37,363 nucleotides of DNA from Gammaproteobacteria bacterium (GTDB taxonomy: Bacteria > Pseudomonadota > Gammaproteobacteria > SG8-11), in contig JACQEQ010000301.1 of the NCBI GenBank assembly GCA_016200445.1, positions 1 to 37,363 of the forward strand, given 5' to 3'. The notes under the pieces were generated by a model, which was not told the origin of the DNA, searched no databases, and saw only the letters and a program-made list of their open reading frames with translations. This document shows, piece after piece, positions 2,826 to 31,703 of the stretch; the stretch's first letter is position 1, and every line of letters begins with the position of its first letter. A program made the translations under genes and the position numbers.

Positions 2826-2884
2826 GTATCCATATTCCTTTTGAGCAGCTGTCGGGGTCAGACACGATTTTATTCAGCATTTAA

Positions 2885-3097: not shown

Positions 3098-3341
3098 ACG
3101 CACACGGAAAGACGAGCTTCGAGCCGAGTACACGTTGTCCGACTTTCCCACGCCGATGGTGCGTGGCAAGTACGCCAAGCGGCTAAAGGAGTCGTCGAAC
3201 ATTGTTGTGCTTAAACCTGAAGTCGCCAAGATTTTTCCAAACGATGAAGCGGTAAATAATGCCCTGCTGTCGTTAATAGAACTGGCTAAAACCATGACGC
3301 GCCCGACAAAGCGCGCACGCGCGAAGACGCGCGCCGCCTAG
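3084..3341 (+). CDS. Putative antitoxin partnered with the BrnT/DUF497 remnant
   Basis: The ATG overlaps the brnT remnant by 14 nt. The pattern DELRAEYTLSDF...VRGKYAKRL...VVLKPEVAKIFPNDEAVNNALLSLIE is typical of small antitoxins encoded downstream of DUF497 toxins. Confidence 0.55.
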   Translation: MKKVKRTRKDELRAEYTLSDFPTPMVRGKYAKRLKESSNIVVLKPEVAKIFPNDEAVNNALLSLIELAKTMTRPTKRARAKTRAA

Positions 3342-3505
3342 GCTATTTGGGTTGCTATCGGGCCGGACTCGATAACCTGTCTCGCCCGGAAAAATCGAAC
3401 TACTCGCTCTGAACCCGGCACGATATCCCTTCTGATTCACCGGCGCTATGAGCACGTGAATTTCGTGCCGACTCGTCGCGCAACAAGCACAAGGAGAATA
3501 AGCGC

Positions 3506-4039
3506 ATGAACTTCTGCCCCGAATGCGCAAGCGCGCTGCAACTCAAACGCGTTGATGGCGTTGATGGCGTTGACGGCGTTGAACGCAAAGCCTGCGTCGC
3601 GCCGGGATGTGGTTTCGTGCACTGGGATAATCCGGTACCGGTCGTCGCCGCGTTGATTGAGTATCAAGGCAAGATCGTGCTGGCCAGAAACGCGCACTGG
3701 CCGGAGGGTATGTTCTCGCTGGTGACGGGTTATCTGGAACGCAACGAGACTGCAAAACACGCCGTGCTGCGGGAAGTGAAAGAAGAGCTCGGTCTTGACG
3801 GCACGGTGCGGGACTTCCTCGGCTGTTATTCGTTCTTCGAAAAAAATCAGATCCTCCTGGCCCATTGGGTCGTGGCCACGGGTGAGATCACCATCGGAAG
3901 CGAAATTGCCGAGGTCAGACTAGTGTCGCGTGACGAATTGAAACGTTGGCCGTTTGGACCACTTGCGATAACGTCGGCGCTTGTGAAGCATTGGTTGGAG
4001 ACCGCATGCGGTGAAGCAGGCGCGCTCAAAAATCCTTGA
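3506..4039 (+). CDS. NUDIX hydrolase with an N-terminal zinc ribbon
   Basis: Nudix box GYLERNETAKHAVLREVKEELGL fits GX5EX7REUXEEXGU. The N-terminus has CPEC...C..GC. RBS aaggag lies upstream of the ATG. Confidence 0.85.
   Translation: MNFCPECASALQLKRVDGVDGVDGVERKACVAPGCGFVHWDNPVPVVAALIEYQGKIVLARNAHWPEGMFSLVTGYLERNETAKHAVLREVKEELGLDGTVRDFLGCYSFFEKNQILLAHWVVATGEITIGSEIAEVRLVSRDELKRWPFGPLAITSALVKHWLETACGEAGALKNP
3551..3586 (+). repeat. 9-nt tandem repeat inside the NUDIX zinc ribbon, encoding (VDG)x3
   Basis: gttgatggc gttgatggc gttgacggc gttgaacgc. Confidence 0.9.
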
Positions 4040-15841: not shown

Positions 15842-17728
15842 ATGAGCAAAACTTACGACGCCGCCGCGATTGAAGTGCTGGTGGGTCTGGAGCCGGTGCG
15901 CAAGCGCCCGGGCATGTACACCCAGACCGAGCGGCCAAATCATCTGGCGCAGGAAGTCATCGACAACAGCGTGGACGAGGCGATGGCCGGTCACGCGAAG
16001 AACATCGACGTGGTGTTGTACAAAGACGGCTCGCTGCAAGTGGCCGACGACGGGCGCGGCATGCCGGTGGACCTGCACCCGGTCGAAAAAATCTCTGGCG
16101 TGGAAGTGATCCTCACGCGGCTGCACGCGGGCGGAAAATTTTCCAATTCCAATTATCAGTTCTCCGGCGGCTTGCACGGCGTGGGCGTGTCGGTGGTCAA
16201 TGCCTTGTCGAAGCGCCTGGAAGTGTGGATCAAGCGCAACGGTCAGGAATACCACATGACCTTCGGCGACGGTGCAAAAAAATCCGAACTCAAAGTGGTC
16301 GGCGAAGTCGGCAAGCGCAACACCGGCACGACGCTGCGCTTCTGGCCCGATCCTAAATATTTCGACTCGCCGAAAATCGCCGCGCCGAAGTTGAAACACG
16401 TGCTGCGCGCCAAGGCGGTGTTGTGCCCCGGCCTGAAGGTATCGTTTCTTGACGAAAACAGCGGCGAGAAAGACGAGTGGTTTTATGAATACGGCCTTCA
16501 AGATTATTTACTCAGCGAGCTGCACAACGTGCCAGTGCTGCCCGACGCGCCGTTCGTGGGCAGTTTCGCGGCGACCAACGAAGCCGTCGACTGGGCGCTG
16601 GTGTGGTTGCCGGAAGGCGGCGAACCGATTGCCGAAAGCTACGTGAATCTGATTCCGACCACTCAGGGTGGCACTCACACCAACGGTTTACGCACCGGCT
16701 TAACCGAAGCGCTGCGCGAATTTTGCGAGACGCGCAGCCTGCTACCGCGCGGTATCAAGCTCGCACCGGAAGACGTGTGGGAAAAAGTCAGTTACGTTTT
16801 ATCGGTCAAGATGAGCGACCCGCAATTCTCTGGACAAACCAAAGAGCGATTGACCTCGCGCGAAACCGCCGCGTTTGTATCCGGCGTGGTGAAAGACACG
16901 CTCGGCATCTGGCTCAATCAAAATCTCGACCAGGGCGAGCGCATCGCCGAGTTGGCGATCAACAGCGCGCAAAACCGCCTGCGTGCCGAAAAGAAAGTGG
17001 TGCGCAAAAAAGTCACCAGCGGACCCGCGTTGCCGGGCAAGCTGGCGGATTGTTCGTCGCAGGATTTATCGCGCACCGAATTGTTTTTGGTGGAAGGCGA
17101 CTCGGCGGGCGGCTCGGCCAAGCAGGCGCGCGACCGCGAGTTCCAGGCGATCATGCCGTTGCGCGGAAAAATCCTGAACACCTGGGAAGTCGATGCCAAC
17201 GAAGTGCTGGGCTCGCAGGAAGTGCACGACATTTCGGTGGCAATCGGCGTCGACCCCGGCTCGGACGATTTGAAAGGCCTGCGTTACGGCAAGATTTGCA
17301 TTCTCGCCGATGCCGATAACGATGGGGCGCATATCGCGACATTATTGTGCGCGCTGTTCGTCAGGCACTTCCGGCCCATGGTCGCGGCAGGCCACGTGTA
17401 TATCGCGATGCCGCCGCTGTTCCGCATCGACGTCGGCAACCATGTGTTCTATGCGCTCGACGACGCCGAGAAACAAGGCGTACTCGACCGCATCGCCGCA
17501 GAAAAACTGCGCGGCAAAGTCAACGTCGTGCGCTTCAAAGGTCTGGGCGAAATGAACCCGCCGCAACTGCGCGAAACCACCATCTCGCCCGACACGCGCC
17601 GCTTGGTGCAACTCACCATCGAACCCGGCGACGACACCAACCAGCTGATGGACATGCTGCTGGGTAAAAAACGCGCCTCCGACCGCAAGGCGTGGTTGGA
17701 GCAGAAGGGCGATTTGGCGACGGTGTGA
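15842..17728 (+). CDS. parE: DNA topoisomerase IV subunit B
   Basis: MSKTYDAAAIEVLVGLEPVRKRPGMYT, the GHKL ATPase, TOPRIM EGDSAGG, PLRGKILN and DADNDGAHI. At 628 aa it lacks the GyrB-type insertion. Confidence 0.9.
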   Translation: MSKTYDAAAIEVLVGLEPVRKRPGMYTQTERPNHLAQEVIDNSVDEAMAGHAKNIDVVLYKDGSLQVADDGRGMPVDLHPVEKISGVEVILTRLHAGGKFSNSNYQFSGGLHGVGVSVVNALSKRLEVWIKRNGQEYHMTFGDGAKKSELKVVGEVGKRNTGTTLRFWPDPKYFDSPKIAAPKLKHVLRAKAVLCPGLKVSFLDENSGEKDEWFYEYGLQDYLLSELHNVPVLPDAPFVGSFAATNEAVDWALVWLPEGGEPIAESYVNLIPTTQGGTHTNGLRTGLTEALREFCETRSLLPRGIKLAPEDVWEKVSYVLSVKMSDPQFSGQTKERLTSRETAAFVSGVVKDTLGIWLNQNLDQGERIAELAINSAQNRLRAEKKVVRKKVTSGPALPGKLADCSSQDLSRTELFLVEGDSAGGSAKQARDREFQAIMPLRGKILNTWEVDANEVLGSQEVHDISVAIGVDPGSDDLKGLRYGKICILADADNDGAHIATLLCALFVRHFRPMVAAGHVYIAMPPLFRIDVGNHVFYALDDAEKQGVLDRIAAEKLRGKVNVVRFKGLGEMNPPQLRETTISPDTRRLVQLTIEPGDDTNQLMDMLLGKKRASDRKAWLEQKGDLATV

Positions 17729-17754
17729 GACCGCTCGCTGCGATTCGTGCGGAA

Positions 17755-17846
17755 CGAAAAGCTAATTTACTGCTAATGTGAACAAAATTAGCAGGTCAGG
17801 GCTATACTGCCATAGCAAGTGCTAATTAATAAAAAATTAGCTTTTC
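17755..17846. promoter_or_regulatory. Cluster of GCTAAT/ATTAGC inverted repeats upstream of fic
   Basis: GAAAAGCTAATTT (17756-17768) pairs with AAATTAGCTTTTC (17834-17846). CTGCTAAT-n9-ATTAGCAG spans 17771-17795. GCTAAT-taataaaaa-ATTAGC spans 17821-17841. The fic ATG is at 17857. Confidence 0.55.
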
Positions 17847-17856
17847 TGGAATAGCC

Positions 17857-19236
17857 ATGAAAATACCGCTTTCTCCGCCGGAACTGAGCGAGCTATTGCC
17901 GAAGCTCGGTATGACGCAGCTGCACCGTGTTTTGAGCCGGGAGTTGGGTCCGCTGGTGGGTGGCCGGTATTTCCACTGGGACGAACTGCGCCACCGCACC
18001 CCGCCCGCCGGGCTGTCGCACGAGGCTTGGTGGGCGGGAATCAAAATCGCCCGTCAAGGGTTGCTGCGCGCGCTGCCGTTTCAAGACAAACTCAAACGGC
18101 CGGTATTGTTCGGGATGCCCGACCCGGTGTTGCGCGTGTTGCACGGGATTGACCGGCGCGTGGGCGGTGCGGTGACGATGGAGAAGCCGATGGTCTCCAG
18201 CGAAGACCGCGACCGCTACCTCGTCAGCTCGCTCATCGAGGAAGCCATTACTTCCAGTCAGCTCGAAGGTGCGGCCACCACACGCGAGGAAGCCAAAGCC
18301 ATGCTACGCAGCGGCCGCAAACCACGCGACCGCAGTGAACGGATGATCGTCAATAACTTCCGCGTAATGGAACATATTCGCGAGCTGCGCGATGAGGCGC
18401 TGACTCCGAAGATCGTGTTGGCCATGCACCGTATCGTGAGTCAAGACACGCTCGACGATCCGAGCGCCGTTGGCCGGTTACGCCGCCCGAATGAGAAGAT
18501 CATCGTCATGGACGCGACACGTTCGCACGTGCTGCACGAACCGCCACCGGCCAGCACATTGCCACAGCGTCTAGAACGTTTGTGTGCATTCGCCAACGAG
18601 ACCGATGGCGAGCCGTTCGTGCATCCGGTGGTTCGCGCCGTTCTCCTACACTACATGGTCGGTTACGACCATCCGTTCGTCGACGGCAACGGCCGCACGG
18701 CGCGCGCTTTGTTCTATTGGAGCTTGGCGCGTTCCGGCTACTGGCTCATGGAATACATTTCGATATCGAGTTTATTGAAGCAGGCGCCCGCGCAGTACGG
18801 GCGTGCCTACCTGCACAGCGAGACCGACGATAGCGACACCACCTATTTTATCTTGCACCAGCTATCAGTCATCGAGCGAGCCATCAAGGCGCTGTACGAA
18901 TACCTTGCGCACAAAACCTCCGAGCAGCGTTCGGCGGAGCGCCTGTTGCGTCACGCACCGCGCCTCGCCGATCAGTTTAATTATCGCCAGACCGCGCTCT
19001 TGACCCATGCGCTCAAACATCCGGGTCATGACTATACGGTGGAAAGCCACCGCCGCTCGCACCGGGTAACGCTCCAGACCGCGCGTACGGATTTGCTGAC
19101 GCTGGCGAAATTGAATCTCCTGGAGCAGGGAAAACGCTCCCGGGCACTGGTGTTTTACGCGCCCGCAGACTTGCGCGCGCGCATCGAGTCGGCCGCGCGC
19201 ATACCCACGCGCCAGCGGCGCGGAACCCCTAAATGA
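17857..19236 (+). CDS. Fic family protein (class II: internal inhibitory motif plus canonical Fic motif), with a C-terminal wHTH-like tail
   Basis: The Fic motif HPFVDGNGRTARAL fits HxFx(D/E)GNGRxxR. The motif SSQLEG, fitting (S/T)xxxE(G/N), lies upstream of the core. Confidence 0.85.
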   Translation: MKIPLSPPELSELLPKLGMTQLHRVLSRELGPLVGGRYFHWDELRHRTPPAGLSHEAWWAGIKIARQGLLRALPFQDKLKRPVLFGMPDPVLRVLHGIDRRVGGAVTMEKPMVSSEDRDRYLVSSLIEEAITSSQLEGAATTREEAKAMLRSGRKPRDRSERMIVNNFRVMEHIRELRDEALTPKIVLAMHRIVSQDTLDDPSAVGRLRRPNEKIIVMDATRSHVLHEPPPASTLPQRLERLCAFANETDGEPFVHPVVRAVLLHYMVGYDHPFVDGNGRTARALFYWSLARSGYWLMEYISISSLLKQAPAQYGRAYLHSETDDSDTTYFILHQLSVIERAIKALYEYLAHKTSEQRSAERLLRHAPRLADQFNYRQTALLTHALKHPGHDYTVESHRRSHRVTLQTARTDLLTLAKLNLLEQGKRSRALVFYAPADLRARIESAARIPTRQRRGTPK

Positions 19237-19406
19237 ATACCCACACGGGAACGACAACGTGTTTTAAACGATGCTCGATTATGCGGTGCAGGCTAGAAAA
19301 TGGGCGGCTTAACCGGCACACTCTGCGACTTAATTTGTCGTTGTGTGTTGGCAAAAACGCCGGCACGTGATCGTATGATCATTTCCGATTCAAGATGGAG
19401 GCTGCA

Positions 19407-19697
19407 ATGAATCGCTCACGCGCCCTTGCGTTACTCACACAGAGTAAACCGATACTGGCGGCCCGTTACGGGGTCACGCAGCTAGCCCTGTTTGGCTCCA
19501 CTGTGCGTGATACCCAGCGCAGCGACAGTGATGTTGACATTTTAGTCGCTTTCGATGGCCCGGCTACATCGGAACGTTACTTCGGCGTCCAGTTCTATCT
19601 CGAAGACCTGTTTGGTTGTCCAGTCGATCTGGTTACCGAAAAAGCGCTGCGCGCTGAATTGCGACCATTTATCGAAAAGGAGGCGGTGCATGTCTGA
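19407..19697 (+). CDS. MNT-type nucleotidyltransferase (antitoxin half of HEPN-MNT modules), orphan
   Basis: LFGSTVRDTQRSDSDVDILVAF fits GS...DxD. ggagg lies 5 nt upstream of the ATG at 19407; an alternative in-frame ATG is at 19395. Confidence 0.8.
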   Translation: MNRSRALALLTQSKPILAARYGVTQLALFGSTVRDTQRSDSDVDILVAFDGPATSERYFGVQFYLEDLFGCPVDLVTEKALRAELRPFIEKEAVHV

Positions 19698-19903
19698 TTC
19701 CGTGCAGCCTGAATTGAAAAACAGAAATCAAGCAAGTGTTGCCTGGATGAGGCGAAGCGAAATTCAGGAAAAGGGCGAATCAGCGTAACAATGCAGGTGG
19801 GAATTTTGAAAGTGAATTCTCAAAAACCAACGGACTATTTCGGATGTGTGATTCTTGAAATCGCGCTCGCTTGGATCGATGCCGAATCGGTCAAGCACGC
19901 TCC

Positions 19904-22774
19904 ATGAGCTTCACCGACTACCACGCTAAATATTTCGCCTATGAGCTAACCAAGCGCTGCGCACCCGACAGCGTCGAAAAACTCGCCGGAGCGGTCGCCA
20001 GCGCTCAAGTCGATCTGAATCCGCATCAGGTCGATGCCGCGTTGTTCGCGTTCCAATCCCCGCTGTCCAAGGGTGCGTTGCTTGCGGACGAAGTCGGGCT
20101 GGGCAAAACCATCGAAGCGGGTCTGGTTCTGTCGCAGAAATGGGCAGAGCGTAAACGGTGCATGCTGGTCATCACTCCGTCCAATTTGCGTACGCAGTGG
20201 TATCAAGAATTGACCGAAAAGTTTTTTCTGCCGTGCCGCATTCTTGAAGCCAAGTCATACAATGCCGTAATCAAGCTTGCGCAGCTTCGTCCATTCGAGG
20301 CGCCTGAGATCATCATTTGTTCCTACCAGTTCGCCAAGAGCAAGGCGGACGACGTGCATGCGATGCCGTGGGATCTGGTGGTCATCGACGAAGCGCATCG
20401 CCTGCGCAATGTGTACAAACCTGGCAACGTGATCGCAAACACGCTGAAGTCGGCGCTCGCGGGCAAGGACAAACTTCTTCTCACCGCGACGCCATTGCAG
20501 AACTCGCTGCTTGAGCTGTTTGGTTTAGTAAGTTTTATCGACGAACACACGTTTGGTGACTTAAAAAGTTTTCGCGAGCAATTCACTAATCTGAATCAAG
20601 AACAGGTGTTTCATACGCTCAAGGCGCGGCTCAAGCCGATTTGCCATCGGACCTTACGTCGACAAGTGACCGCATACATTCCCTTCACCAAGCGCCTGCC
20701 GCTGGTGGAGGAATTCACGCCGGAGGAAAGCGAAGACAGGCTTTACGAGGTCGTCTCCGGTTATCTGCAACGAGATAACCTGCAAGCGTTACCCGCAAGT
20801 CAACGCTCACTAATGACGCTCGTGCTGCGTAAGTTACTCGCCTCGTCGACCTTCGCCATCGCAGGCGCGTTAACGTCGATATCCAACCGCCTCAAAGCCA
20901 AGCTGCGCAAACACGAGCCCACCGAGCCGCTTGCGGACGAGCTAGACCGTGACTACGAATCCCTCGAAGAAACCGCCGAGGAATGGAGTGACGATGAGCC
21001 CGCCGAAGTGCTCACCGCCGTCGACCGTGCCGCCATCGAAATGGAAATTGTCGACCTCGATGCCTTCGCCGAACTTGCCGCGTCCATCGACCACAACGCC
21101 AAGGGCCGGGCGTTACTCAAAGTGCTGGAAATTGCCTTCGCCAAAGCGCGTGAACTCGGCGGCGCAGAGAAAGCCATCATCTTCACCGAATCGCGCCGCA
21201 CGCAAAGCTACCTGCTGCGCCTGCTGGCCGATAGTCAGTGGAGCGAAGGCATTGTGCTGTTCAACGGCACCAATACCGATGAACGCTCAAAGCAAATTTA
21301 TGCGCAATGGATCGAGCGCCATCAAGGCAGTGATCGCGTCATCGGTTCGCGCAGTGCCGACATGCGTTCGGCGCTAGTAGATTATTTTCGCGAGCAAGGT
21401 CGCATCATGATCGCGACTGAAGCCGGTGCAGAAGGCATTAACCTCCAGTTCTGTTCGTTGGTGGTGAACTACGATCTGCCGTGGAACCCGCAACGCATCG
21501 AGCAGCGCATCGGCCGCTGCCATCGCTACGGCCAGAAGCACGATGTCGTGGTCGTGAACTTTCTCAATCGCAATAACGCTGCTGACCAACGCGTGTTTGA
21601 ATTGTTGTCGGAAAAATTTCAGCTCTTCGAAGGTGTCTTCGGCGCCAGCGACGAAGTGCTCGGCGCGATTGAGTCCGGCGTGGATTTCGAAAAGCGCATC
21701 GCAGCCATCTACCAGACCTGTCGCAAGCCCGACGAAATCCAATCCGCGTTCAACCAGCTCCAGCTCGAACTCAGCCTGGAGATCAACGCGTCGATGACGC
21801 GCACGCGCCGGAACTTGTTGGAACATTTCGACGACGAAGTACGCGACAAGCTCAAGGTGCGCGACGAGGCCGCGAAAGCCTTTCTCAGTCGCTTCGAACG
21901 CTTGCTCATGCAACTCACGCGGCACGAGTTGGGCGACAACGCAACATTTCGAGACGACTACGCTTTTCTTCTCAAGTCCTGTCCGTATTCCGTCGACATT
22001 CCGCTAGGCTTGTACGAACTGCCGCGCCGCTCCGGCGAGACGCATCTTTACCGTCTGAATCACCCGCTCGCCGAAGCGCTGTTAGCGCAGGCGAAAGCGC
22101 GCGACCTGCCGCCCGCTGAAGTTCATTTCGATTACGGACTGCATGACGGCAAGGTCACGCTGTTGGAGCCCCTCATCGGCAAGTCCGGTTGGCTCACGCT
22201 CACGCTGTTTAGCGTCGAGTCGCTGAATCAGGCGGAGGATCACCTTGTCGTTGCCGCAACCACCACTGATGGCGACGCGCTTGATGAAGAAATCGCAACG
22301 CGCCTGCTTACCCTGCCGGGTCGCGTGAACGGTACAACACCAGCAACGTCTGCCCCCTCAGCATTGGAACAACAAACCGCGCAACGCCAAGCGGTCATCC
22401 AACGCAACATCTCGGAGCGCAATGCGCGCTTCTTTGAAGCTGAGGCGGAAAAACTCGATGGCTGGGCTGACGATCTCAAAGTGGGTTTGGAGCGTGAAAT
22501 CAAAGAGCTCGACCGCCAGATTAAAGAAGCGCGGCGCGCAGCGACCACCGCGCTAACGTTGGAAGAAAAGCTCGCAGGGCAGAAACAGATCAAAGCCGTT
22601 GAAGCGCAACGCAACCAGAAACGGAGAACGCTGTTCGACGCGCAAGACCAAGTAGACAATCAACGTGACGAGCTCATTGCTCAAATCGAAGGCAAATTGA
22701 CCCAATCGACCCGGATCGAGACGCTCTTCACGTTGCGCTGGACTGTTGTGTCTAGCCGCGAAACCAGCGCATGA
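19904..22774 (+). CDS. SNF2-family helicase with a long C-terminal extension ending in a coiled coil
   Basis: LADEVGLGKTIEAG (I), VVIDEAHRLRN (II), LLLTATPLQNSLLELFGL (III), ATEAGAEGINLQ (V), WNPQRIEQRIGRCHRYGQ (VI). The C-terminal 350 aa lack recognised motifs and end in a charged heptad-like region (EAEAEKLDGWADDLKVGLEREIKELDRQIKEARR...). Confidence 0.85.
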   Translation: MSFTDYHAKYFAYELTKRCAPDSVEKLAGAVASAQVDLNPHQVDAALFAFQSPLSKGALLADEVGLGKTIEAGLVLSQKWAERKRCMLVITPSNLRTQWYQELTEKFFLPCRILEAKSYNAVIKLAQLRPFEAPEIIICSYQFAKSKADDVHAMPWDLVVIDEAHRLRNVYKPGNVIANTLKSALAGKDKLLLTATPLQNSLLELFGLVSFIDEHTFGDLKSFREQFTNLNQEQVFHTLKARLKPICHRTLRRQVTAYIPFTKRLPLVEEFTPEESEDRLYEVVSGYLQRDNLQALPASQRSLMTLVLRKLLASSTFAIAGALTSISNRLKAKLRKHEPTEPLADELDRDYESLEETAEEWSDDEPAEVLTAVDRAAIEMEIVDLDAFAELAASIDHNAKGRALLKVLEIAFAKARELGGAEKAIIFTESRRTQSYLLRLLADSQWSEGIVLFNGTNTDERSKQIYAQWIERHQGSDRVIGSRSADMRSALVDYFREQGRIMIATEAGAEGINLQFCSLVVNYDLPWNPQRIEQRIGRCHRYGQKHDVVVVNFLNRNNAADQRVFELLSEKFQLFEGVFGASDEVLGAIESGVDFEKRIAAIYQTCRKPDEIQSAFNQLQLELSLEINASMTRTRRNLLEHFDDEVRDKLKVRDEAAKAFLSRFERLLMQLTRHELGDNATFRDDYAFLLKSCPYSVDIPLGLYELPRRSGETHLYRLNHPLAEALLAQAKARDLPPAEVHFDYGLHDGKVTLLEPLIGKSGWLTLTLFSVESLNQAEDHLVVAATTTDGDALDEEIATRLLTLPGRVNGTTPATSAPSALEQQTAQRQAVIQRNISERNARFFEAEAEKLDGWADDLKVGLEREIKELDRQIKEARRAATTALTLEEKLAGQKQIKAVEAQRNQKRRTLFDAQDQVDNQRDELIAQIEGKLTQSTRIETLFTLRWTVVSSRETSA

Positions 22775-23006
22775 AGGAGCCTGTGATGACAGATACCCAC
22801 TATCCTTGTCCGAACCGCCGGAAGGCATCGCGGGGAAGTCGTTGCAGGAGATTGAGGGTTGGGTCTTCCGGCGCTTGAAGATGATTCTGAATTGTAGCCG
22901 GGATGTCGTGCCCACGTTTAAGCTTGGGGTAACAGTGACGAATGGCTATACAAATGAAATATCGCACCTTCAATGGAAAGAAAGATTTGCTGAGGTATGC
23001 CCATGA
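22746..23006 (+). CDS. Possible short ORF translationally coupled to the ATPase (unknown function)
   Basis: The open frame ends in an ATGA overlap with the ATPase start (23003-23006). The start codon is unclear and no family was recognised. Confidence 0.25.
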   Translation: MCLAAKPAHEGACDDRYPLSLSEPPEGIAGKSLQEIEGWVFRRLKMILNCSRDVVPTFKLGVTVTNGYTNEISHLQWKERFAEVCP

Positions 23007-24103
23007 TTAAACGAGTATCCAATTCAAACCAGCTTTCAAAGCTGACATTGCATGGCTACAAGTCGATTGCATCGTGCGAGATTGAATTAGGCAAGCTCAA
23101 TGTTTTGATCGGCGCTAACGGTGCGGGAAAGTCGAATTTCATCGGCTTTTTCAGGCTAATAAGCAAGATTCTGGATCAGCAGCTGCAATCGGCTGTTGGA
23201 ACTTCTGGCGGCCCTGATGCCATGCTGCATTTTGGACGAAAAAAAACGGAAGAACTGAATGCCGAGCTCTATTTCGGTAACAATGGGTACAAATTCAAGC
23301 TGAAACCCACTCAAGACAATCGGATGATGTTTTCGCGCGAATGCCTGTGGTGGAACATGAGTGGTGATTGGCAGCCGCATTCCGGACATTTCGAGTCCTA
23401 TCTGGAAGCGCAAAAGGGAAAAACCAATATCTGGGGCTACGTCGTTCCACCCATGCGAAGCTGGCGTGCCTATCACTTCCATGACACCAGTGACAGCGCT
23501 ACGGTCAAACAGGTGCACGGCATTAACGACAATGAATATCTGCGTGCAGATGCCCGTAATCTGGCGGCATTTCTTTTCCGCCTGAAAAACCACCATGAGG
23601 CGCATTACCGCCGCATCGTTAAATCCATTCAGTTGGTAGCGCCGTTTTTTGGTGACTTCCATCTACGTCCGGCGGTGGATAACAAGGAAAAAATTCAACT
23701 TGAATGGACCGAGGCCGGGCAAGACGTGCCGTTCTCTGCCAGCGCGCTGTCGGACGGCACGCTTCGCTTTATCTGTTTAGCCACCGTGCTATTGCAACCC
23801 GAGCAGTTCATGCCAGCGTCCATTTTGATTGATGAGCCGGAATTAGGATTACACCCCTACGCTATTGCTGTTCTCGGCGCATTGATGAAATCGACTGCCG
23901 AAAAACATCAACTGATTGTCTCCACGCAGTCCGTTGAGTTGGTTAACGAATTTGAGGCAGACGATCTGATTGTGGTGGATAAGGAAAATGGTGCGTCCAC
24001 GTTCAAGCGACCCGACACCGCCGCCCTCACCGAATGGCTGAACGATTTCAGTCTCGGCGAGTTGTGGAAGAAAAATCTTCTGGGCGGGAGACCGGCGCGA
24101 TGA
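23003..24103 (+). CDS. ABC/SMC-like AAA ATPase (AAA_21/AAA_15 type)
   Basis: Walker A GANGAGKSNF, LSDGTLRF, Walker B ILIDEPELGLHP, and STQS. The N-terminus has the L.L.GYKSI pattern typical of OLD/ABC-like defence ATPases. The gene is AT-richer than the flanking SNF2 and res genes by eye. Confidence 0.8.
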   Translation: MIKRVSNSNQLSKLTLHGYKSIASCEIELGKLNVLIGANGAGKSNFIGFFRLISKILDQQLQSAVGTSGGPDAMLHFGRKKTEELNAELYFGNNGYKFKLKPTQDNRMMFSRECLWWNMSGDWQPHSGHFESYLEAQKGKTNIWGYVVPPMRSWRAYHFHDTSDSATVKQVHGINDNEYLRADARNLAAFLFRLKNHHEAHYRRIVKSIQLVAPFFGDFHLRPAVDNKEKIQLEWTEAGQDVPFSASALSDGTLRFICLATVLLQPEQFMPASILIDEPELGLHPYAIAVLGALMKSTAEKHQLIVSTQSVELVNEFEADDLIVVDKENGASTFKRPDTAALTEWLNDFSLGELWKKNLLGGRPAR

Positions 24104-24756
24104 AGCGCATGTATTTGCTGGCGGAAGGTCAGACAGAAGAAACCTTCGTAAGAGAATTGCTCGCGCCGCACTATGCTCGAAGTGGCTTGTTCATTACGCC
24201 AATCATTGTGCGCACCAGCCCCGGCCACAAAGGTGGCGTGGTGAGCTACGCCAAGGTCAAGCCGCAAATCATCCGCCTGTGTAAACAGGACGCAGCCGCC
24301 TATGTGTCCACGTTGTTTGATCTATACGCCTTGCCCGATGATTTTCCGGGCAAGACTTCAGCGGCATACCAATCAAAAAATATCGGCGCGCAAAAAGCAG
24401 CATTTCTCGAAGCCGCGCTCGCACAGGACGTCAACGAACCCAACTTCATTCCTTTTCTCATGGTGCATGAGTTCGAAGCCTTATTGTTCGTGCAGCCCGA
24501 GAAATTCGCCGTGTGGACGGACAAAGCCGATGTGGTGTCCTCGTTAGGCAAGGTTGCACAGAAACACCAGACACCGGAAGACATTAATGACAAGCCGCAA
24601 ACTGCTCCATCAAAGCGGATTCTGGACCTGATGCCTGAATACGAGAAACCGTTTCATGGCCCGCTGATCGCTTGCGATATTGGCCTGGATGCCATGCGCC
24701 AATCCTGCCCGCATTTTGAGGCCTGGCTTCAGAGGCTGGAAGCGCTGGCTGCATGA
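24100..24756 (+). CDS. DUF4276 family protein (Toprim-like partner of the ATPase)
   Basis: The ATG overlaps the ATPase stop (ATGA at 24100-24103). Sequence: MKRMYLLAEGQTEETFVRELL ... LFDLYALP ... VHEFEALLF. Confidence 0.7.
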   Translation: MKRMYLLAEGQTEETFVRELLAPHYARSGLFITPIIVRTSPGHKGGVVSYAKVKPQIIRLCKQDAAAYVSTLFDLYALPDDFPGKTSAAYQSKNIGAQKAAFLEAALAQDVNEPNFIPFLMVHEFEALLFVQPEKFAVWTDKADVVSSLGKVAQKHQTPEDINDKPQTAPSKRILDLMPEYEKPFHGPLIACDIGLDAMRQSCPHFEAWLQRLEALAA

Positions 24757-24780
24757 ACAATGAAGCAGTGAATCGTCGAA

Positions 24781-25909
24781 ATGAGTAAGAAAAAACTAGA
24801 ACTGACCTGGATCGGCAAGGAAACCCGGCCGAAGCTGGAGCCACGGATTTTGTTGGAGGATGCGGCGCGGTCGTATCACGCGAAATACAGGAGCGCGGGC
24901 GTCTCGCCCGCGCTCCAGGACATTTTCGACAACCGGCTGATCTTCGGCGACAACCTGCTGGCGCTGAAGGCGCTGGAGGCGGAGTTTGCGGGGAAGGTGA
25001 AGTGCGTGTTCATCGATCCGCCGTACAACACCGGCAGCGCCTTCACGCATTACGACGACGGGGTGGAGCATTCGATCTGGCTGTCGCTGATGCGCGACCG
25101 GCTGGAGATTATCCGGCGGTTGTTGTCGGAGGATGGTTCGCTGTGGATCACGATTGACGACAACGAGGCGCATTACCTGAAGGTGTTGTGCGATGAAGTG
25201 TTTGGGCGGGCGAATTTTGTTTCAACTGTTATCTGGCAAAAAAAATACGCACCGAAATCTGATTCCAAGTACTTTTCTGAATCGCATGATTTCGTATTGG
25301 TAATCGCCAAGCAGATTGATCGGTTTCAGCTTGGACGATTGCACAAGACAGAAAAGCAGACTGGTCGTTACACCAATCGAGACAACGACCCGCGTGGGTC
25401 TTGGAAGGCAAGTGACGTACTGCGGAATGAAGCACGGGATTACGCTATTTTTCCCGTGAAGTTACCTTCAGGGCGTGAGGTATGGCCGCCTTCTGGAACA
25501 AGCTGGAGATACACAAAGGAGAAGTTCGAAGAGCTGGTTGCCGATAATCGCATTTGGTTTGGTGTTGATGGCGATGCAAGACCGGCATACAAGCGATTTA
25601 TTTCGGAAGTGAGTGACACGATCCCAAGCACAACGATTTGGGGTTTTGACGAGGTTGGACATAACGACGAGTCGAAGAAAGAAATGCGAGCTATCTTTGG
25701 TGAGGATTTGTTCGCCACTCCAAAGCCGGAGAGATTGCTTCAGCGGGTTATCCAACTTGCTACCAACCCCAACGACCTCATCCTCGACTCCGAAGAAAAT
25801 TCCCAACGCGGTGTTGAAGCGCTGCGAGTGGGGTCATGACGACTACAGTTTGAAGGTGGAGAATCTGCCGCAGGCGGCGCCTAAGCCGGGGCAGGGGGAC
25901 TTATTTTGA
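24781..25909 (+). pseudogene. mod: Type III (beta-class N6/N4) DNA methyltransferase Mod, internally deleted
   Basis: Motif IV FIDPPYNTG and the pre-motif-I segment ATPKPERLLQRVIQLATNPNDLILDS are present. The FxGxG AdoMet motif that should follow is missing. The frame then runs into nonsense and stops at 25839. A C-terminal-looking fragment, KKIPNAVLKRCEWGHDDYSLKVENLP, continues in another frame to 25909. Confidence 0.65.
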
Positions 25910-25910
25910 T

Positions 25911-25993
25911 CCGCAGATTACGCAGATTTACACAGATTCAAAAACCAGAAACTGCCGTTGGGTTTAATCGGCGGAAATCTGCGAAATCTGTGG
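25911..25993. repeat. Left palindromic heptad-rich unit flanking the GxxExxY gene
   Basis: ccgcagattacgcagatttacacagattca ... aatcggcggaaatctgcgaaatctgtgg. The two halves are inverted copies built from CAGATT(T/A)-type heptads. Confidence 0.7.
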
Positions 25994-26005
25994 AGAAAGT
26001 TTCTT

Positions 26006-26458
26006 ATGAACAGGGATGAGCAAACTTTCGCAATTATCGGTGCGGCGATGGAGGTGCATCGGGAACTGGGTCATGGGTTCCTGGAAGCCGTTTACCAAGA
26101 GGCCCTTGCCCTGGAATTTACGGGCCGCCGGATTGTTTTCACGCGTGAAATCGAATTGCCCATTTTGTATCGAGGGCAACGACTGAACACGGGGTACCGC
26201 GCGGACTTTGTGTGTTTTGACGCGGTAGTTGTCGAGCTGAAAGCCCTGGACCGACTGACAACGAGGGAAGAGTCGCAGCTTATCAACTACCTCAAAGCCA
26301 GCGGCAAGGAGCGTGGGTTGTTGCTGAACTTTGGGAGCCGGAGCCTGGAATATAAAAGGATGATTTTTTCAAATCCGCAGATTACACGGATTTCCACAGA
26401 TTCATCTCAAGATAATCGGCGCGAATCTGCGCAATCTGCGGAAGGAGAAACTGGATGA
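26006..26458 (+). CDS. GxxExxY protein (PD-(D/E)XK-like small protein)
   Basis: [25 protein letters not shown] (GxxExxY), [26 protein letters not shown]...GLLLNFG. The C-terminal tail [10 protein letters not shown] is encoded by the right-hand repeat unit. Confidence 0.85.
26375..26441. repeat. Right palindromic heptad-rich unit flanking the GxxExxY gene
   Basis: ccgcagattacacggatttccacagattca ... aatcggcgcgaatctgcgcaatctgcgg. This is a direct copy of the unit at 25911-25993. Confidence 0.7.
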
Positions 26459-26511
26459 TTCGGGGGATAGGGTGTGGAACGATCACGCAGCCGTTTTATG
26501 AGAGGCAAGTT

Positions 26512-26736
26512 ATGAAGCTACAGATCGACGAAGAAGCGGATGCGCTGCACCTGCAATTGGTGGATGTGCCGGTGGTCGAGTCGGAGGAAGTGGCGCCCGG
26601 CGTGATCGTGGATTATGACGATGCCGATCAAGTGGTGGGTATTGAGGTGCTGCATTTATCGAAGCGGCCGCATCCGGTGAACCTGATGGATTTCCAATTC
26701 CTGACGAATCCACGGCGCGCGGTGGCGGGGAAATAA
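26512..26736 (+). CDS. DUF2283 domain protein
   Basis: MKLQIDEEADALHLQL...EEVAPGVIVDYDDADQVVGIEVLHLSKR. RBS gagagg lies upstream. Confidence 0.75.
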   Translation: MKLQIDEEADALHLQLVDVPVVESEEVAPGVIVDYDDADQVVGIEVLHLSKRPHPVNLMDFQFLTNPRRAVAGK

Positions 26737-29421
26737 GTGAACCGTCACGTCAATGCCATCGCCGGCCGGTTGAGTTTGCGCGCGCCGCAGCGCGCGTCGC
26801 TGGAAATTCTGGATCGCATCACCGAGATTGCGCCGCCGCGCAAGGCGGCCGACCTTGCGGCAGAGCTGGCGGCGATTCAAAGCGAGTATCCGACCGTCAC
26901 GGATTTCGAGCGCGAGTTTCCGTCGCTGTGTTTCGCGCTGGCGACCGGTGTGGGCAAGACGCGGCTGATGGGCGCGTTCATCAGCTACCTGCATCTTGCG
27001 CATGGGCTGAACAACTTTTTTGTGATGGCGCCAAATCTCACCATTTACAACAAACTCATTACCGACTTCACGCCGAATACATCGAAGTATGTATTCAAAG
27101 GGATTGCCGAGTTCGCGGTGAACAGCCCGTCGATCGTCACTGGCGATAACTATGAGAAGAGCGATCCGACCACGGGCACGCTGTTTGGCGGCGTGAGCGT
27201 GAACATCTTCAACATATCGAAGATCAATTCGGAAGTGCGTGGCGGCAAGTCGCCGAAGATTCGCCGCTTGTCGGAATATATCGGGCAGAGTTATTTCGAC
27301 TATCTCGCCGGGCTCGATGACTTGGTGCTCATCATGGACGAGTCGCACCGCTACCGCGCGTCGGCGGGCGTGCGCGCGATCAACGAATTAAAACCGGTGC
27401 TGGGGCTTGAACTGACCGCGACGCCGTTTGTGGAAACGAGCAAGGGGCCAGTTCAATTCAAGAACGTGATCTACGACTATCCGCTGGGTAAAGCGATGGA
27501 AGACGGCTTTGTAAAAGAACCGGCGGTGGTTACACAGAAGAATTTTGACCCGAGCAGTTTTACACCTGCGCAGCTTGAAGAGATCAAATTAAAAGACGGC
27601 ATACGCCTGCACGAAAACGTGAAGGTGGAGTTGGAAACCTACGCGCGGCAGACCGATCAGGCCATCGTCAAACCCTTCGTGCTGGTGATCGCGCGCGATA
27701 CCACGCACGCCGGGCAGTTGATGCAGTTAATTCAGTCGCACGAATTCTTCGAGGGGCGCTACAAGGACAAGGTGATTCAGGTGGATTCGAGCAAGACCGG
27801 CGCGGAGGAAGACGCGATGGTCGAACGGTTGCTGCGCGTCGAGCACGCCGACGAGCCGACGGAAATCGTAATCCACGTGAACATGCTCAAGGAAGGCTGG
27901 GACGTGACCAACCTCTACACCATCGTGCCGCTGCGCGCAGCGAATGCGCGGACCTTGATCGAGCAATCGATCGGGCGCGGCTTGCGCCTGCCCTACGGCA
28001 AACGCACCGGCGTGATGTCGGTGGACCGGCTCAACATCGTCGCGCACGACAAATTTCAGGAGATCGTCGACGAGGCAAACCGGGCGGATTCCGTGATTCG
28101 GTTGCAGCAAGTCATTCTCGATCCGGCCAACGATTTCGCGCCGATGGTGACGGTGGTTTCGAATGCGACCTTGCTCGATCACATCGGCGGCCATTCCGTG
28201 CACGTGGCGGGCGTGCCGGTGCAGAACCCGACGGCGCAAAATGTTTTCGCGACCGACGCTGAGAAGAAAATCGCTCAGGCTACCGTAGAGGTCATCAAGA
28301 AATTCGAGAATTACCCAACGTCGCGGAGTTTGCTCGACAAGAAAGTGCAGGAAAACCTTGTGCGCGAAGTGGCTGCCATCTACGCGCCGGTGCAAGGTGA
28401 GCTGGAAGGCATTGGTGAGAAGCCGGACATCGCCGCCGTTGTCGCCAAGGCGACCGCGTTGCTGGTGGACAAGACTATCGACATCCCGCGCATCACCGTT
28501 GTGCCGAAAGGCGAAGTCAGCAGCGGGTTTCATTCGTTCAAATTGAACGCGAGCGCGATTCACTATCAGCCGGTCGAGCGCGACATTTTGATTAAGCATT
28601 TGCGCACGAACGAGCTGGAAACATTGAGCAGCGCCGGAGCGGACGACATCGAGACGCGGCTCGAAGATTATCTGGTGCGCGCGTTGATCGACCACAACGA
28701 TATTTCCTACGACCATCACGCAGGGTTGCTGTACGACCTTGCCGGGCAGATGGTCGCGCATATTCGCGGTTATCTTTCCGAGGACGATGCGCGCAACGTG
28801 TTGCAATACTACCAACGCCCGCTGGCGGAATTCATCCACGCGCAAATGCAAAATCACTATTGGGAAAAGGTGTCGGGCTACGACGTGGCGGTGAGCAAAG
28901 GATTTACGACGCTACGGCGGTCGGCCTATACCGCACCCGCAGGCAAGATTGCGGCGAATTTCCGCGAGACCGTCACCGACCGGAACAAGATCGGACAAAT
29001 GCTGTTTAACGGTTTCAAAAATTGTTTGTATGATGTGCAGCGCTTTCATTCGGACACCGAGCGTAAGCTCGCGATCATTCTCGACCGCGATGCGCAGAAG
29101 TGGTTCCGGCCCGTCGCGGGGCAATTTCAGATGTACTACAAACTCGGCCACGAACAACCGGAATACGTGCCCGACTTCGTTGCCGAGGCAAGCGACGGCA
29201 ACTACGTGATCGAAACGAAAGCGCGCAATGAAATGGAAGCCGCCGACGTGCTCGCAAAACGCGACGCCGCCGTCGCCTGGTGCGGCCACGCAACGCGCCA
29301 CGCGAAGGACAACGGCGGCAAGCCGTGGCGTTATCTGCTGATTCCGCACGACGAGGTTGCCGAAAACATCACCCTGCCGGGTTTTGTATCGCGGTTTGCG
29401 TGCGAGCAACTCGAAGCGTAA
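26737..29421 (+). CDS. res: Type III restriction enzyme Res subunit (SF2 helicase plus C-terminal PD-(D/E)XK nuclease)
   Basis: LATGVGKTRLM (I), LIMDESHRY (II), LELTATP (III), MLKEGWDVTNL, QSIGRGLRLP (VI). The C-terminal nuclease-like segment is YVPDFVAEASDGNYVIETKA. The GTG start immediately follows the DUF2283 stop. Confidence 0.85.
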   Translation: MNRHVNAIAGRLSLRAPQRASLEILDRITEIAPPRKAADLAAELAAIQSEYPTVTDFEREFPSLCFALATGVGKTRLMGAFISYLHLAHGLNNFFVMAPNLTIYNKLITDFTPNTSKYVFKGIAEFAVNSPSIVTGDNYEKSDPTTGTLFGGVSVNIFNISKINSEVRGGKSPKIRRLSEYIGQSYFDYLAGLDDLVLIMDESHRYRASAGVRAINELKPVLGLELTATPFVETSKGPVQFKNVIYDYPLGKAMEDGFVKEPAVVTQKNFDPSSFTPAQLEEIKLKDGIRLHENVKVELETYARQTDQAIVKPFVLVIARDTTHAGQLMQLIQSHEFFEGRYKDKVIQVDSSKTGAEEDAMVERLLRVEHADEPTEIVIHVNMLKEGWDVTNLYTIVPLRAANARTLIEQSIGRGLRLPYGKRTGVMSVDRLNIVAHDKFQEIVDEANRADSVIRLQQVILDPANDFAPMVTVVSNATLLDHIGGHSVHVAGVPVQNPTAQNVFATDAEKKIAQATVEVIKKFENYPTSRSLLDKKVQENLVREVAAIYAPVQGELEGIGEKPDIAAVVAKATALLVDKTIDIPRITVVPKGEVSSGFHSFKLNASAIHYQPVERDILIKHLRTNELETLSSAGADDIETRLEDYLVRALIDHNDISYDHHAGLLYDLAGQMVAHIRGYLSEDDARNVLQYYQRPLAEFIHAQMQNHYWEKVSGYDVAVSKGFTTLRRSAYTAPAGKIAANFRETVTDRNKIGQMLFNGFKNCLYDVQRFHSDTERKLAIILDRDAQKWFRPVAGQFQMYYKLGHEQPEYVPDFVAEASDGNYVIETKARNEMEAADVLAKRDAAVAWCGHATRHAKDNGGKPWRYLLIPHDEVAENITLPGFVSRFACEQLEA

Positions 29422-29453
29422 CGAGAACAAGAATTTATGTTTAAGGGCAAACC

Positions 29454-31703
29454 ATGACTGACGAAACAAAAACCAACCCCGACGGTATCGAGCGTCAGCC
29501 GCTGCGCGCGTTCAGCGAGAAGGCGTATCTTGACTATTCGATGTACGTGATTCTGGATCGCGCGTTGCCGCATATCGGCGACGGCTTGAAGCCGGTGCAG
29601 CGGCGCATTGTTTATGCGATGAGCGAGCTGGGTTTGAAGGCCGGGAACAAATACAAAAAATCCGCGCGCACGGTCGGTGATGTGCTCGGCAAATTTCATC
29701 CGCATGGTGACTCGGCGTGTTACGAAGCGATGGTGTTGATGGCGCAGCCGTTTTCGTATCGCTATCCGCTGGTCGACGGGCAGGGCAACTGGGGATCGCC
29801 CGATGACCCCAAATCCTTCGCCGCGATGCGTTACACCGAATCGCGCTTGGCGAAATATGCCGAAGTGTTGCTCGCGGAGTTGGGGCAGGGCACGGTCGAT
29901 TGGGTGCCGAATTTCGACGGCACCATGGACGAGCCGTCGCTGTTGCCGGCGCGCTTGCCTAACGTGTTGTTGAACGGGACGACCGGCATCGCGGTCGGCA
30001 TGGCAACCGATATTCCGCCACATAACCTGCGCGAAGTCGCCGCAGCGTGTATTCACTTGATCGAAAATCCCAAAGCCACGGTCAGCGAGCTGTGTGAATT
30101 CGTGTTGGGGCCGGATTTCCCCACCGACGCGGAAATCATCACGCCGCGCCAAGAGCTGTTGGCGATGTATGAAACCGGTAACGGTTCGGTGCGCATGCGT
30201 GCGCGTTACGAAATTGAAGATGGCTGTGTGGTGCTGACGTCGCTGCCGCACCAGACCTCGGGCGCGAAAATCCTGGAGCAGATCGCGCAGCAGATGAATG
30301 CGAAGAAATTGCCGATGGTGGAAGACTTGCGCGACGAGTCCGACCACGAAAACCCGACGCGCCTGGTGATCGTGCCGCGTTCCAACCGCGTGGATTTGGA
30401 TGAATTGATGGGCCACCTGTTCGCGACCACCGACCTGGAACGCAGCTACCGTATCAACATGAACATGATCGGCTTGAACGGCCGCCCGCAGGTCAAGAAC
30501 CTACGCGACCTGTTGAGCGAGTGGCTGGAGTTCCGCATGTTGACGGTTCGCCGCCGCTTGCAGTGGCGGCTCGACAAGGTCAATGCGCGCTTGCACATCC
30601 TTGACGGTTTGCTGATCGCCTACCTGAACATCGACGAAGTGATTCGCATCATCCGCACCAACGACGAGCCCAAGCCGGTGTTGATGGCGCGTTTCAAGCT
30701 GAGCGACACGCAGGCCGAGGCGATTCTAGAACTCAAGCTGCGGCACCTCGCCAAGCTCGAAGAAATGCAGATTCGCACCGAGCAGAACGAGCTGGCCGAA
30801 GAACGCGACGAACTGCAAAAAATTCTGGATTCGGGTAAGCGGTTACGCACGCTAGTCAAAAAAGAAATTCAGGACGACATGAAAACCTACGGTGACGAAC
30901 GCCGTTCGCCCTTGGTCACACGTGCAATCGCCAAGGCCATCGACGAATCGACGCTGGTCGGTGCCGAGCCGGTAACGGTCATTTTGTCCGAAAAAGGCTG
31001 GGTGCGTTCCGCCAAAGGCCACGACATCGACGCGCTCGCGCTGCAATACAAAGCGGGCGACAGCTTTCGCGCAGCCGCCATCGGCAAGAGTAATCAGTCT
31101 GCGGTGTTCCTCGACTCCACCGGCCGTGCCTATACGTTGCCTGCGCACCAATTGCCATCGGCGCGCGGCCACGGCGAACCGCTGACCGGCTGGCTGAATC
31201 CGCCGCCGGGCGCAACCTTTGCGGGTGTCATGTTGGGTGTGCCGGAGCAGTTGTACCTGGTCGGCAGCGACGCGGGTTACGGCTTCGTCGCCAAGCTCGA
31301 AGACATGTCGACTAAAAATAAAAACGGTAAAGCCGTATTGAGCGTATCGGCAGGGAGTCGCGTCGTGGCACCTGCACCGATTTTCGATGTCGAAACCGAC
31401 CGCCTCGCCGCAGTCACCAACGACGGTCACATGCTGGTATTTGCAGTAAAAGACCTGCCTATGCTGGCAAAAGGCCGTGGCAATAAAATTATCGGTGTGT
31501 CGCCCAAGGACGACGAAGCGTTATTCGCGTTGCTGTCGATTCCAAAAGGCGGTGGCCTGACCATCTTCGCCGGCAAACAACACACCACGCTGAGTGCCAG
31601 CGAATTGAACGAGTACCAAGGCGAACGCGGACGACGCGGCAAGAAACTTCCGCGTGGCTATCAGAAGGTGGATCGCGTCGCGTTACTTCCTCCAGCATCG
31701 TGA
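29454..31703 (+). CDS. parC: DNA topoisomerase IV subunit A
   Basis: [33 protein letters not shown], the active-site [10 protein letters not shown], and a length of 749 aa. Confidence 0.9.

Follow-up and report, generated by a model that had tools for sequence, protein, structure and literature searches.

An old, decaying defense island with cassette exchange between parE and parC in an uncultured gammaproteobacterial genus

Introduction

How did 11,725 bases of defense-type genes come to lie between parE and parC, the two genes of the essential topoisomerase IV operon, in an uncultured gammaproteobacterium? The locus lies on contig C441 (JACQEQ010000301.1), the whole of which, 37,363 nucleotides, was analyzed and is called the window here. 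It belongs to a metagenome-assembled genome (MAG) of 3.4 Mb in 444 contigs that is 79% complete (GCA_016200445.1), and its closest named relatives by ParC (~71–73% identity) are uncultured Gammaproteobacteria/“Chromatiales” MAGs and Thiohalobacter. A preliminary description, made from the sequence alone, had taken the interval for an accessory island and perhaps a recombination hotspot for defense cargo. The reading that we favor, at a probability of about 70%, is a lineage-specific, integrase-free defense hotspot in the spacer of a normally tight parE–parC operon. The island itself is ancient; it has been inherited, it is decaying, and between its conserved anchors a cassette has been swapped at least once.

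Results

Boundaries and content of the interval

The core flanks and the two junctions are the following.

15842-17728, + strand: parE (topoisomerase IV subunit B), left core flank, with Pfam DNA_gyraseB, Toprim, and GyrB_C
17729-17856, + strand: left junction and upstream region of the Fic gene, with GCTAAT/ATTAGC inverted repeats
29426-29453, + strand: right junction, ~28 nt 5' of the parC ATG, common to the window, G001, and G003b
29454-31703, + strand: parC (topoisomerase IV subunit A), right core flank, matching TIGR01062 parC_Gneg at 1120 bits

The open reading frame (ORF) of parE opens at TTG 15791, but the start that aligns with relatives is ATG 15842; the gene ends with TGA at 17726-17728 and is 86–91% identical in nucleotides to its counterparts in same-genus genomes. 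parC starts with the ATG at 29454, and ParC is 95–98% identical in amino acids among these genomes. The interval is ~93% coding and holds nine ORFs at spacings of −4 to 222 nt, all on the + strand like parE and parC, and all nine genes match defense, toxin, or helicase families (Pfam, PADLOC, NCBIfam). The genes around the island are housekeeping genes (DsrE-like, CCG-domain protein, M48 peptidase, and GGDEF-EAL protein). The preliminary description was right about the existence, domains, and coordinates of the island, about its single direction, and about its lack of mobility features. No integrase or transposase domain occurs among the Pfam and NCBIfam matches of the window, which also has no tRNA and zero matches to Rfam families. 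The att-like repeats suggested for the two junctions were not found either, nor were long direct repeats, at the island edges (17729-17856 and 29422-29453). The only notable repeats are hairpin units around the GxxExxY gene and inverted repeats before Fic, and promoter and terminator scans of the interval gave no better results than shuffled controls.

The parE–parC interval in relatives

All 18 relatives have both genes, co-oriented and adjacent or near-adjacent in most, with a gap of 27–100 bp in 6 of the 18. The gap is 57 bp (G007) and 51 bp (G010) in the sister genus g3, and 519 bp in G006 of the other sister genus. A public set of 160 gammaproteobacterial loci, collected by metagenome- and genome-contig scans, has parE upstream on the same strand in 108; among these, the gap is below 400 bp in 36, 1–2 kb in 51 (Pseudomonas-type; ~1.5 kb in Pseudomonas), and 2–10 kb in 10. 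Scans for nearer relatives reached a best parC identity of 71–73% and yielded no extra strain-level alleles. The larger gaps of distant lineages hold cytochromes c, response regulators, glycosyltransferases, MurB-like proteins, transporters, and one HipA toxin pair. Because gaps are short in relatives and the larger ones hold housekeeping-type cargo, parE–parC adjacency is the ground state; the junction is variable class-wide and a defense site in this genus only, where one subclade carries such cargo. The expectation that the two genes normally lack such cargo is thus borne out: they are adjacent in this lineage, and the gaps in relatives are usually 27–100 bp.

Within the genus, five MAGs were compared, giving about six lineages in all, and the occupants differ. 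In G002, parE is followed by the 5' remnant of an AlbA_2 gene fused to the 3' remnant of a DUF2130 gene, a HEC-01-like ATPase gene (422 aa), a DUF4276-like gene, a mod 5' remnant, an intact MNT–HepT pair, and parC. G001 has a G002-like order in which MNT and hepT are cut to remnants (hepT to 37 nt), then a second mod fragment (codons ~37–58), and then the 28-nt pre-parC junction of the window. The G003 bin comprises two strains (95.7% identity at the 5' end of parC): G003a (C511, continuous with C170) carries Septu PtuA–PtuB and a 386-aa gene directly 5' of parC, and G003b (C207) has a res–parC arrangement like that of the window at 90.5% nucleotide identity. G004, whose ParC is 80% identical, has only a dihaem cytochrome c gene (3128-3763) in the interval. 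In G005, synteny is lost and housekeeping genes stand beside parE, but a hepT 3' remnant still lies 5' of parC.

The edges of this variation are sharp. In same-genus genomes, the left edge is the parE stop codon and the right edge lies 10–28 nt before the parC ATG. The left junction sequence of the window is unrelated to the DNA after parE in G001, G002, and G003; at the right junction, 25 nt are 100% identical in G001, and in alignment G002 and G003a differ up to ~10 nt before the parC ATG. All resolved cargo genes of G000, G001, G002, G003a, G003b, and G004 are co-oriented with parC. The same core flanks thus recur in relatives around cargo that differs and is rich in defense systems. The earlier hotspot suggestion stands insofar as cargo differs among same-genus genomes; it does not extend outside the genus, where the interval holds housekeeping-type rather than defense genes.

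Could the locus be an artifact of assembly or binning, that is, a false join of parE, foreign DNA, and parC, or, for the mod frameshift, a consensus error? The fragmentation and incompleteness of the source MAG and the mixing of two strains in the sister bin G003 speak for caution. But the res–parC junction is reproduced in an independent assembly (G003:C207), MNT and the mod 5' end lie between parE and parC on single contigs in both G001 and G002, GC and tetranucleotides match the genome, and the mod lesion is a ~500-nt deletion and not a homopolymer slip. We therefore consider an artifact very improbable.

Three further observations concern these relatives. First, the 386-aa ORF of G003a (G003:C511 2805-3965, its 5' end cut by the contig edge) abuts Septu ptuA and has zero Pfam or PADLOC matches; it could be a candidate defense-associated gene. 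Second, parE and parC of G005 lie on separate long contigs (C18 and C9), and G005:C59 2600-3455 carries an SNF2 5' remnant (82% nucleotide identity to the window) beside an AlbA_2/Schlafen gene; a rearrangement of the chromosome seems to have had a breakpoint within the island. Third, a c-type cytochrome gene (CxxCH) between parE and parC recurs in several “Chromatiales”-type relatives as a non-defense occupant.

Age of the island and replacement of a cassette

The composition of the island is native. Island and genome have nearly equal GC contents (55.2 and 55.3%, respectively), and the tetranucleotide distance of the island falls at the 76th–89th percentile of genome chunks (n = 919), so that it is not an outlier in the profile that the preliminary description had proposed as a check. 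Between the window and G003b, res has a synonymous divergence (dS) of 0.39 and a ratio of nonsynonymous to synonymous divergence (dN/dS) of 0.094; for the flanking parE and parC, dS is 0.29–0.60 and dN/dS is 0.02–0.05. res was kept by purifying selection. At the site, sister species share remnants of MNT/hepT, of the mod 5' end, and of the DUF2130 3' end, as well as res. From the native composition, the co-divergence of res with its flanks, and the shared remnants, it follows that the island is ancient and not recent: with its MNT–HepT and Mod/Res unit, it predates the split of the G000–G003/G005 subclade and has descended vertically since. A recent acquisition is therefore not supported. The preliminary description had opposed its hotspot to an ancient, fixed gene set of native composition; age and composition are indeed as in that alternative, but the arrangement is not fixed across relatives. 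The sole positive sign of horizontal origin is a swapped HEC-01 cassette. This cassette belongs to one composite unit that fills 19871-29421.

19871-22774, + strand: SNF2-family helicase, DrmD-like (Pfam SNF2-rel_dom and Helicase_C; PADLOC DrmD, E 1e-204)
22824-22885, + strand: 3'-terminal remnant of a DUF2130-family gene, left anchor of the slot-1 cassette (matches the C-terminus of intact DUF2130 paralogues)
22997-24103, + strand: HEC-01A ABC-type ATPase, slot 1 (PADLOC HEC-01A, E 1.4e-156, full length; Pfam AAA_21)
24100-24756, + strand: HEC-01B, DUF4276 TOPRIM-like, slot 1 (Pfam DUF4276, E 2.6e-60; PADLOC HEC-01B, E 3.1e-88)
24781-25909, + strand: type III-like mod pseudogene (MTase_III, E 1e-118)
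25908-26458 (ORF 25958-26458), + strand: GxxExxY (PD-(D/E)XK_3) mini-cassette, slot 2 (TIGR04256, E 6e-42)
26455-26736, + strand: DUF2283 small protein, orphan, slot 2 (Pfam DUF2283, E 3e-16)
26737-29421, + strand: type III-like Res (helicase-nuclease), intact (REase_III, E 1e-214; ResIII domain)

The ATPase and DUF4276 genes of the window and those of G001/G002 stand between the same anchors, the DUF2130 3' remnant (~88% nucleotide identity) and the first ~100 nt of mod (85–86%). Between these anchors, the ATPases are only ~25% identical in amino acids, and no cross-match was found between the DUF4276-type partners of the window and of G001/G002. Because conserved anchors flank such strongly diverged genes, we read the difference as replacement of the cassette. 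The other changes in the island are internal deletions (hepT, the mod core, and the DUF2130 gene) and whole modules gained or lost (Fic here, Septu in a sister strain).

It is possible, in principle, to explain all of this by decay, with one entry before the subclade split and lineage-specific deletions producing every difference. Much agrees with such a history: the MNT/hepT, mod 5', and DUF2130 3' remnants and the 28-nt pre-parC junction are common to sisters, res has co-diverged with its flanks, composition is native, and mod, hepT, and DUF2130 are visibly degraded. But decay does not account for two cassettes with such divergent ATPases in one slot, for Fic only in the window and Septu and the 386-aa gene only in G003a, or for a dS of MNT versus G002 (0.85) that exceeds that of core genes (0.43–0.52). 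Deletion alone is insufficient because the ancestor would need to have held all these modules at once, and we consider it an unlikely sole explanation.

The SNF2–Mod–Res backbone and its two slots

The backbone of the unit consists of SNF2, mod, and res; slot 1 lies between SNF2 and mod and slot 2 between mod and res. The SNF2 helicase, whose likely start is ATG 19904, scores 686 bits against NCBIfam DrmD_b (cut-off 950 bits) and is 49–58% identical to plasmid homologues located ahead of Mod and Res. In slot 1, HEC-01A and HEC-01B are adjacent, the start of the latter overlapping the stop of the former by 4 nt. The ~60-nt repeat at 22824-22885, which was considered as a repetitive extragenic palindromic (REP) element or a Schlafen/AlbA_2 remnant, is neither; it is the DUF2130 3' end.

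Slot 2 holds two small genes. Repeats D1, I2, and I3 surround GxxExxY (25893-25992 and 26357-26442), and two hairpin-forming copies built on CCGCAGATTACRCRGATT flank it (25908-25992 and 26372-26442), the second of which codes for the C-terminal tail of the GxxExxY protein. No further copy of the CCGCAGATTACRCRGATT motif exists anywhere in the 3.4-Mb MAG. The layout resembles a small cassette, mobile or structured; PDDEXK_3 proteins are functionally unassigned (PMC3424549). The DUF2283 gene probably starts at 26512, and DUF4258, its partner elsewhere, is missing from the window; the protein is 83% identical to the copy behind a DUF4258 gene in G003:C172.

The same three-gene, two-slot layout recurred in 8 of 8 unrelated contexts, found by tblastn of the SNF2 protein against plasmids and by context look-ups of Res homologues. 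These contexts, which are Deinococcus, Rhizobium, Cupriavidus, and Salmonella plasmids, Nitrospirota, a gammaproteobacterial MAG, and two metagenome contigs, span at least five phyla and include conjugative plasmids. The order is SNF2, 0–4 variable genes, an N6_N4 methyltransferase (455–685 aa), 0–2 small genes, and Res. Elsewhere, slot 1 holds AIPR/Abi proteins, an nSTAND ATPase with an S8 peptidase, VapC, or IS256, and slot 2 holds DUF262, a Zeta toxin, or a UPF0175–DUF3368 pair. The Res family is very large, with at least 8,000 candidates at E ≤ 1e-50 (8,000 of 8,000 scored), and is ~70% identical across phyla. A literature search found no paper naming a three-gene system of SNF2, Mod, and Res.

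The occurrence of this unit on conjugative plasmids, with one SNF2–Mod–Res homologue adjoining conjugation genes, raises the question of whether a genomic island or prophage once integrated site-specifically between parE and parC and has since degenerated, losing its integrase and att sites. Defense islands often ride such elements. The window, however, lacks genes for an integrase, excisionase, or transposase, has no tRNA, and shows no direct repeats at the island edges. Moreover, the edges fall at a stop codon and in a ribosome-binding region and not at an att core, the composition is native, and several cargo sets lie within identical boundaries. Descent from an integrative and conjugative element, prophage, or similar island thus seems quite improbable to us.

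Loss of mod and the state of the island

The N-terminal 337 codons of mod are intact to ~25791, from FIDPPYNT through ...NPNDLILDS. There, alignment with a 562-aa plasmid Mod ends, at ...LVLDS of the homologue, right before its FGGSGTT S-adenosylmethionine (AdoMet) motif. The C-terminal tail segment of mod spans 25793-25909, and within it KKIPNAVLKRCEWGHDDYSLKVENL (25793-25867) lies in another frame and matches homologue residues 525–549. Because the homologue's tail reappears at 25793 in the other frame, mod appears to have lost ~165 codons by an internal deletion with a frameshift. We also considered disruption of mod by the GxxExxY cassette, but this is ruled out because the natural mod tail is kept upstream of the cassette, which thus occupies the Mod–Res slot. 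As a type III methyltransferase, then, Mod keeps motif IV (FIDPPYNT) and has lost AdoMet motif I (FxGxG).

The 5' part of mod also contains a 27-nt near-perfect palindrome, GGAGCGCGGGCGTCTCGCCCGCGCTCC (24890-24916), read in frame (codons ~37–45, RSAGVSPAL). The Mod homologue of the Salmonella plasmid has a 5-residue gap where the palindrome stands, and most of it is kept in the mod remnant of G001 just 5' of parC.

Downstream of mod, Res has a superfamily 2 (SF2) helicase core and a C-terminal PD-(D/E)xK nuclease, as expected of a type III Res. It is colinear with its plasmid homologue over residues 3–888, including the C-terminal PD...ExK (VPDFVAE...IETK), and is 93% identical in amino acids to Res of G003b. 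A type III Res works only in complex with Mod (EcoP15I-type enzymes, e.g. PMC4490356). Because Mod has no AdoMet motif and Res requires Mod, the restriction module is probably inactive now, as judged from the gene sequences. With Mod gone, Res would be harmless and could persist. Fic, SNF2, HEC-01, and Res appear to be still intact, and Fic and HEC-01, each acting alone, may still provide defense of an abortive or nuclease type.

Fic, MNT, and the hepT remnant

Three features precede the composite unit.

17857-19236, + strand: class II Fic protein, SoFic-like AMPylase (Pfam Fic, E 4e-18; PADLOC SoFic, E 2.8e-38)
19395-19697, + strand: MNT nucleotidyltransferase, MNT–HepT-type antitoxin, orphan (NTP_transf_2, E 1e-16; PDC-S09, E 1e-27)
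19694-19792, + strand: hepT 5' remnant (first ~19 nt homologous, other 32 codons unrelated)

Fic covers 327 of the 361 positions of the PADLOC SoFic model and reaches 34.5 bits against the NCBIfam SoFic equivalog (cut-off 550 bits). Because it contains both the catalytic HPFVDGNGRTARAL and the inhibitory TSSQLEG, we assign it to the auto-inhibited class II. Among same-genus genomes, only that of the window has Fic at the parE–parC junction. Inverted repeat I7 lies before it (17756-17777/17825-17846), with a promoter-like site at 17779-17808 that is not above chance. The ~100 nt before the Fic start (17756-17846) are packed with GCTAAT/ATTAGC inverted repeats that overlap this site, and these could be a candidate operator, either for a regulator or for the C-terminal DNA-binding-like region of Fic itself.

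MNT stands alone in the window, where ~19 nt of hepT are left, so that no type VII MNT–HepT pair is present; the remnant was read from ATGTCTGATTCCG.GCAGC in the window versus the intact hepT of G002. MNT scores 45.6 bits against NCBIfam MntA (cut-off 60 bits) and is 88% identical in amino acids to the MNT of the intact pair that adjoins parC in G002. At another locus, G003:C172 (2475-3711), an intact DUF4258–DUF2283 pair is followed by an MNT–HepT pair, and its DUF2283 and MNT are 83 and 70% identical in amino acids, respectively, to the window orphans. Evidently, such small toxin–antitoxin (TA) modules travel together between loci.

Every family named in the preliminary description was thus recovered, with two corrections: mod is a pseudogene with a frameshift, and the two antitoxin-type genes, MNT and DUF2283, are orphans. 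The toxin, restriction, and helicase genes, listed there as independent, are better grouped into three units: Fic, the MNT remnant, and a nested SNF2–Mod–Res unit with cargo.

Discussion

The favored hotspot reading and a proposed mechanism

For the route by which DNA would enter the parE–parC spacer, we infer exchange through flanking homology: the position of the edges points to it, mobility genes are lacking, and there is a precedent in core defense hotspots, where 29–47% of sites are without a mobile gene and transduction with flank recombination has been proposed (PMC10250203). Incoming DNA would enter by homologous recombination, with the parE/parC flanks or backbone segments as arms, and site-specific integration would not be the route. 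Further, parC may depend on transcription through or from within the island because only 32 nt follow res and this spacer has no promoter. Such read-through to parC would select for co-oriented, terminator-free cargo, and no + strand terminator above chance was found.

Several observations weigh against this reading. First, sliding-window identity across the six lineages revealed no recombination tract or phylogenetic discordance in parE/parC; the identity profile tracks conservation, and the outgroup G004 shows the same. Second, the compared species are all ~10% diverged and star-like, and there are only about six lineages, all fragmented MAGs. Third, outside this genus, no defense genes occur in the interval. 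Fourth, one ancestral island that decayed differently in each lineage could account for much of the variation. Finally, promoter and terminator scans were at chance, and co-orientation is not absolute, as the end of a 21-codon reverse-strand ORF follows parE in G003.

A tentative and less probable extension is a recurrent operon-embedded slot. Here, defense genes would be nested in the essential operon; the lethal flanks would pin the edges to the stop codon and the ribosome-binding site and would guard against large deletions. Because parC would be expressed by read-through, cargo would be filtered for co-orientation and lack of terminators, and the balance of topoisomerase IV subunits would become tied to transcription of the island.

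Relation to known systems

Both core-gene-flanked hotspots and embedded defense cargo have already been described. Like cDHS1 and cDHS2 of Pseudomonas aeruginosa (PMC10250203) and the hotspots of Escherichia coli (PMC10121019), the parE–parC hotspot that we favor has fixed core flanks and variable defense content; in both, type III restriction–modification (R-M) is among the cargo, and in those hotspots, many sites are without a mobility gene and flank exchange has been proposed. Unlike those hotspots, the flanks here are two genes of an otherwise contiguous essential operon, the composition is native and not low in GC, the content is largely old and decaying, and the comparison covers about six diverged MAG lineages rather than hundreds of isolates. 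A literature search for a parE–parC island found nothing.

Embedded cargo is known in Hma, BREX, DISARM, and type I R-M systems, where 96.7% is co-oriented with the host system (Payne et al., bioRxiv 10.1101/2024.01.29.577857). In the same work, HEC-01 is an ABC ATPase with a TOPRIM-like protein in which no defense activity was detected. The window resembles these systems in having an ABC-ATPase/TOPRIM pair, co-oriented, between helicase and methylase genes, and slot cargo that varies among homologous backbones. It differs from Hma in its backbone of SNF2 with type III-like Mod and Res and in the second slot, between mod and res, with small TA-like genes: SNF2 matches HmaA at 3e-47 only, neither mod nor res matches HmaB/HmaC, and instead mod matches MTase_III and MTase_II models and res matches REase_III models.

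The unit resembles R-M of the EcoP15I type III in that mod precedes res, Mod has a DPPY motif IV and a target-recognition region, and Res combines SF2 helicase motifs with a C-terminal PD-ExK nuclease. Unlike that type, it has a constant extra SNF2 partner, and its Mod here is without motif I and ~165 residues, so that R-M is probably dead. With class 1 DISARM it shares a DrmD-like SNF2 helicase and an adenine-type methyltransferase. In contrast to DISARM, drmA, drmB, and drmC are missing, and SNF2, which covers 621 of the 868 DrmD_b model positions (24–644), is below its cut-off. No interval gene matches DrmB (DUF1998) or DrmC (PLD), and the sole DrmA match, a weak and secondary one, comes from the SNF2 protein itself. 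Thus, the backbone is best described as SNF2-associated type III-like R-M and is neither Hma nor DISARM.

The locus adds an integrase-free defense hotspot, in the reading that we favor, in an uncultured sulfur-type gammaproteobacterial genus, where it splits an essential operon. Three levels of variation are nested in it: modules between core genes, anchored cassette swaps in SNF2–Mod–Res, and internal decay. The SNF2 and type III Mod/Res backbone would be a general carrier of embedded cargo, both slots of which may be mined for defense candidates, in parallel with the approach used in Hma, BREX, and type I R-M loci. Annotation calls for caution, as the type III system of the locus is defective and neither MNT nor DUF2283 has its partner gene.

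A segment of unusual composition lies elsewhere in the window. Over 1501-3000, GC falls to 48–49%, the mean of the genome being 55%, with a strongly positive AT skew (~0.2). The segment spans ORFs 1637-2359 and 2352-2825 and may be another small acquired segment.

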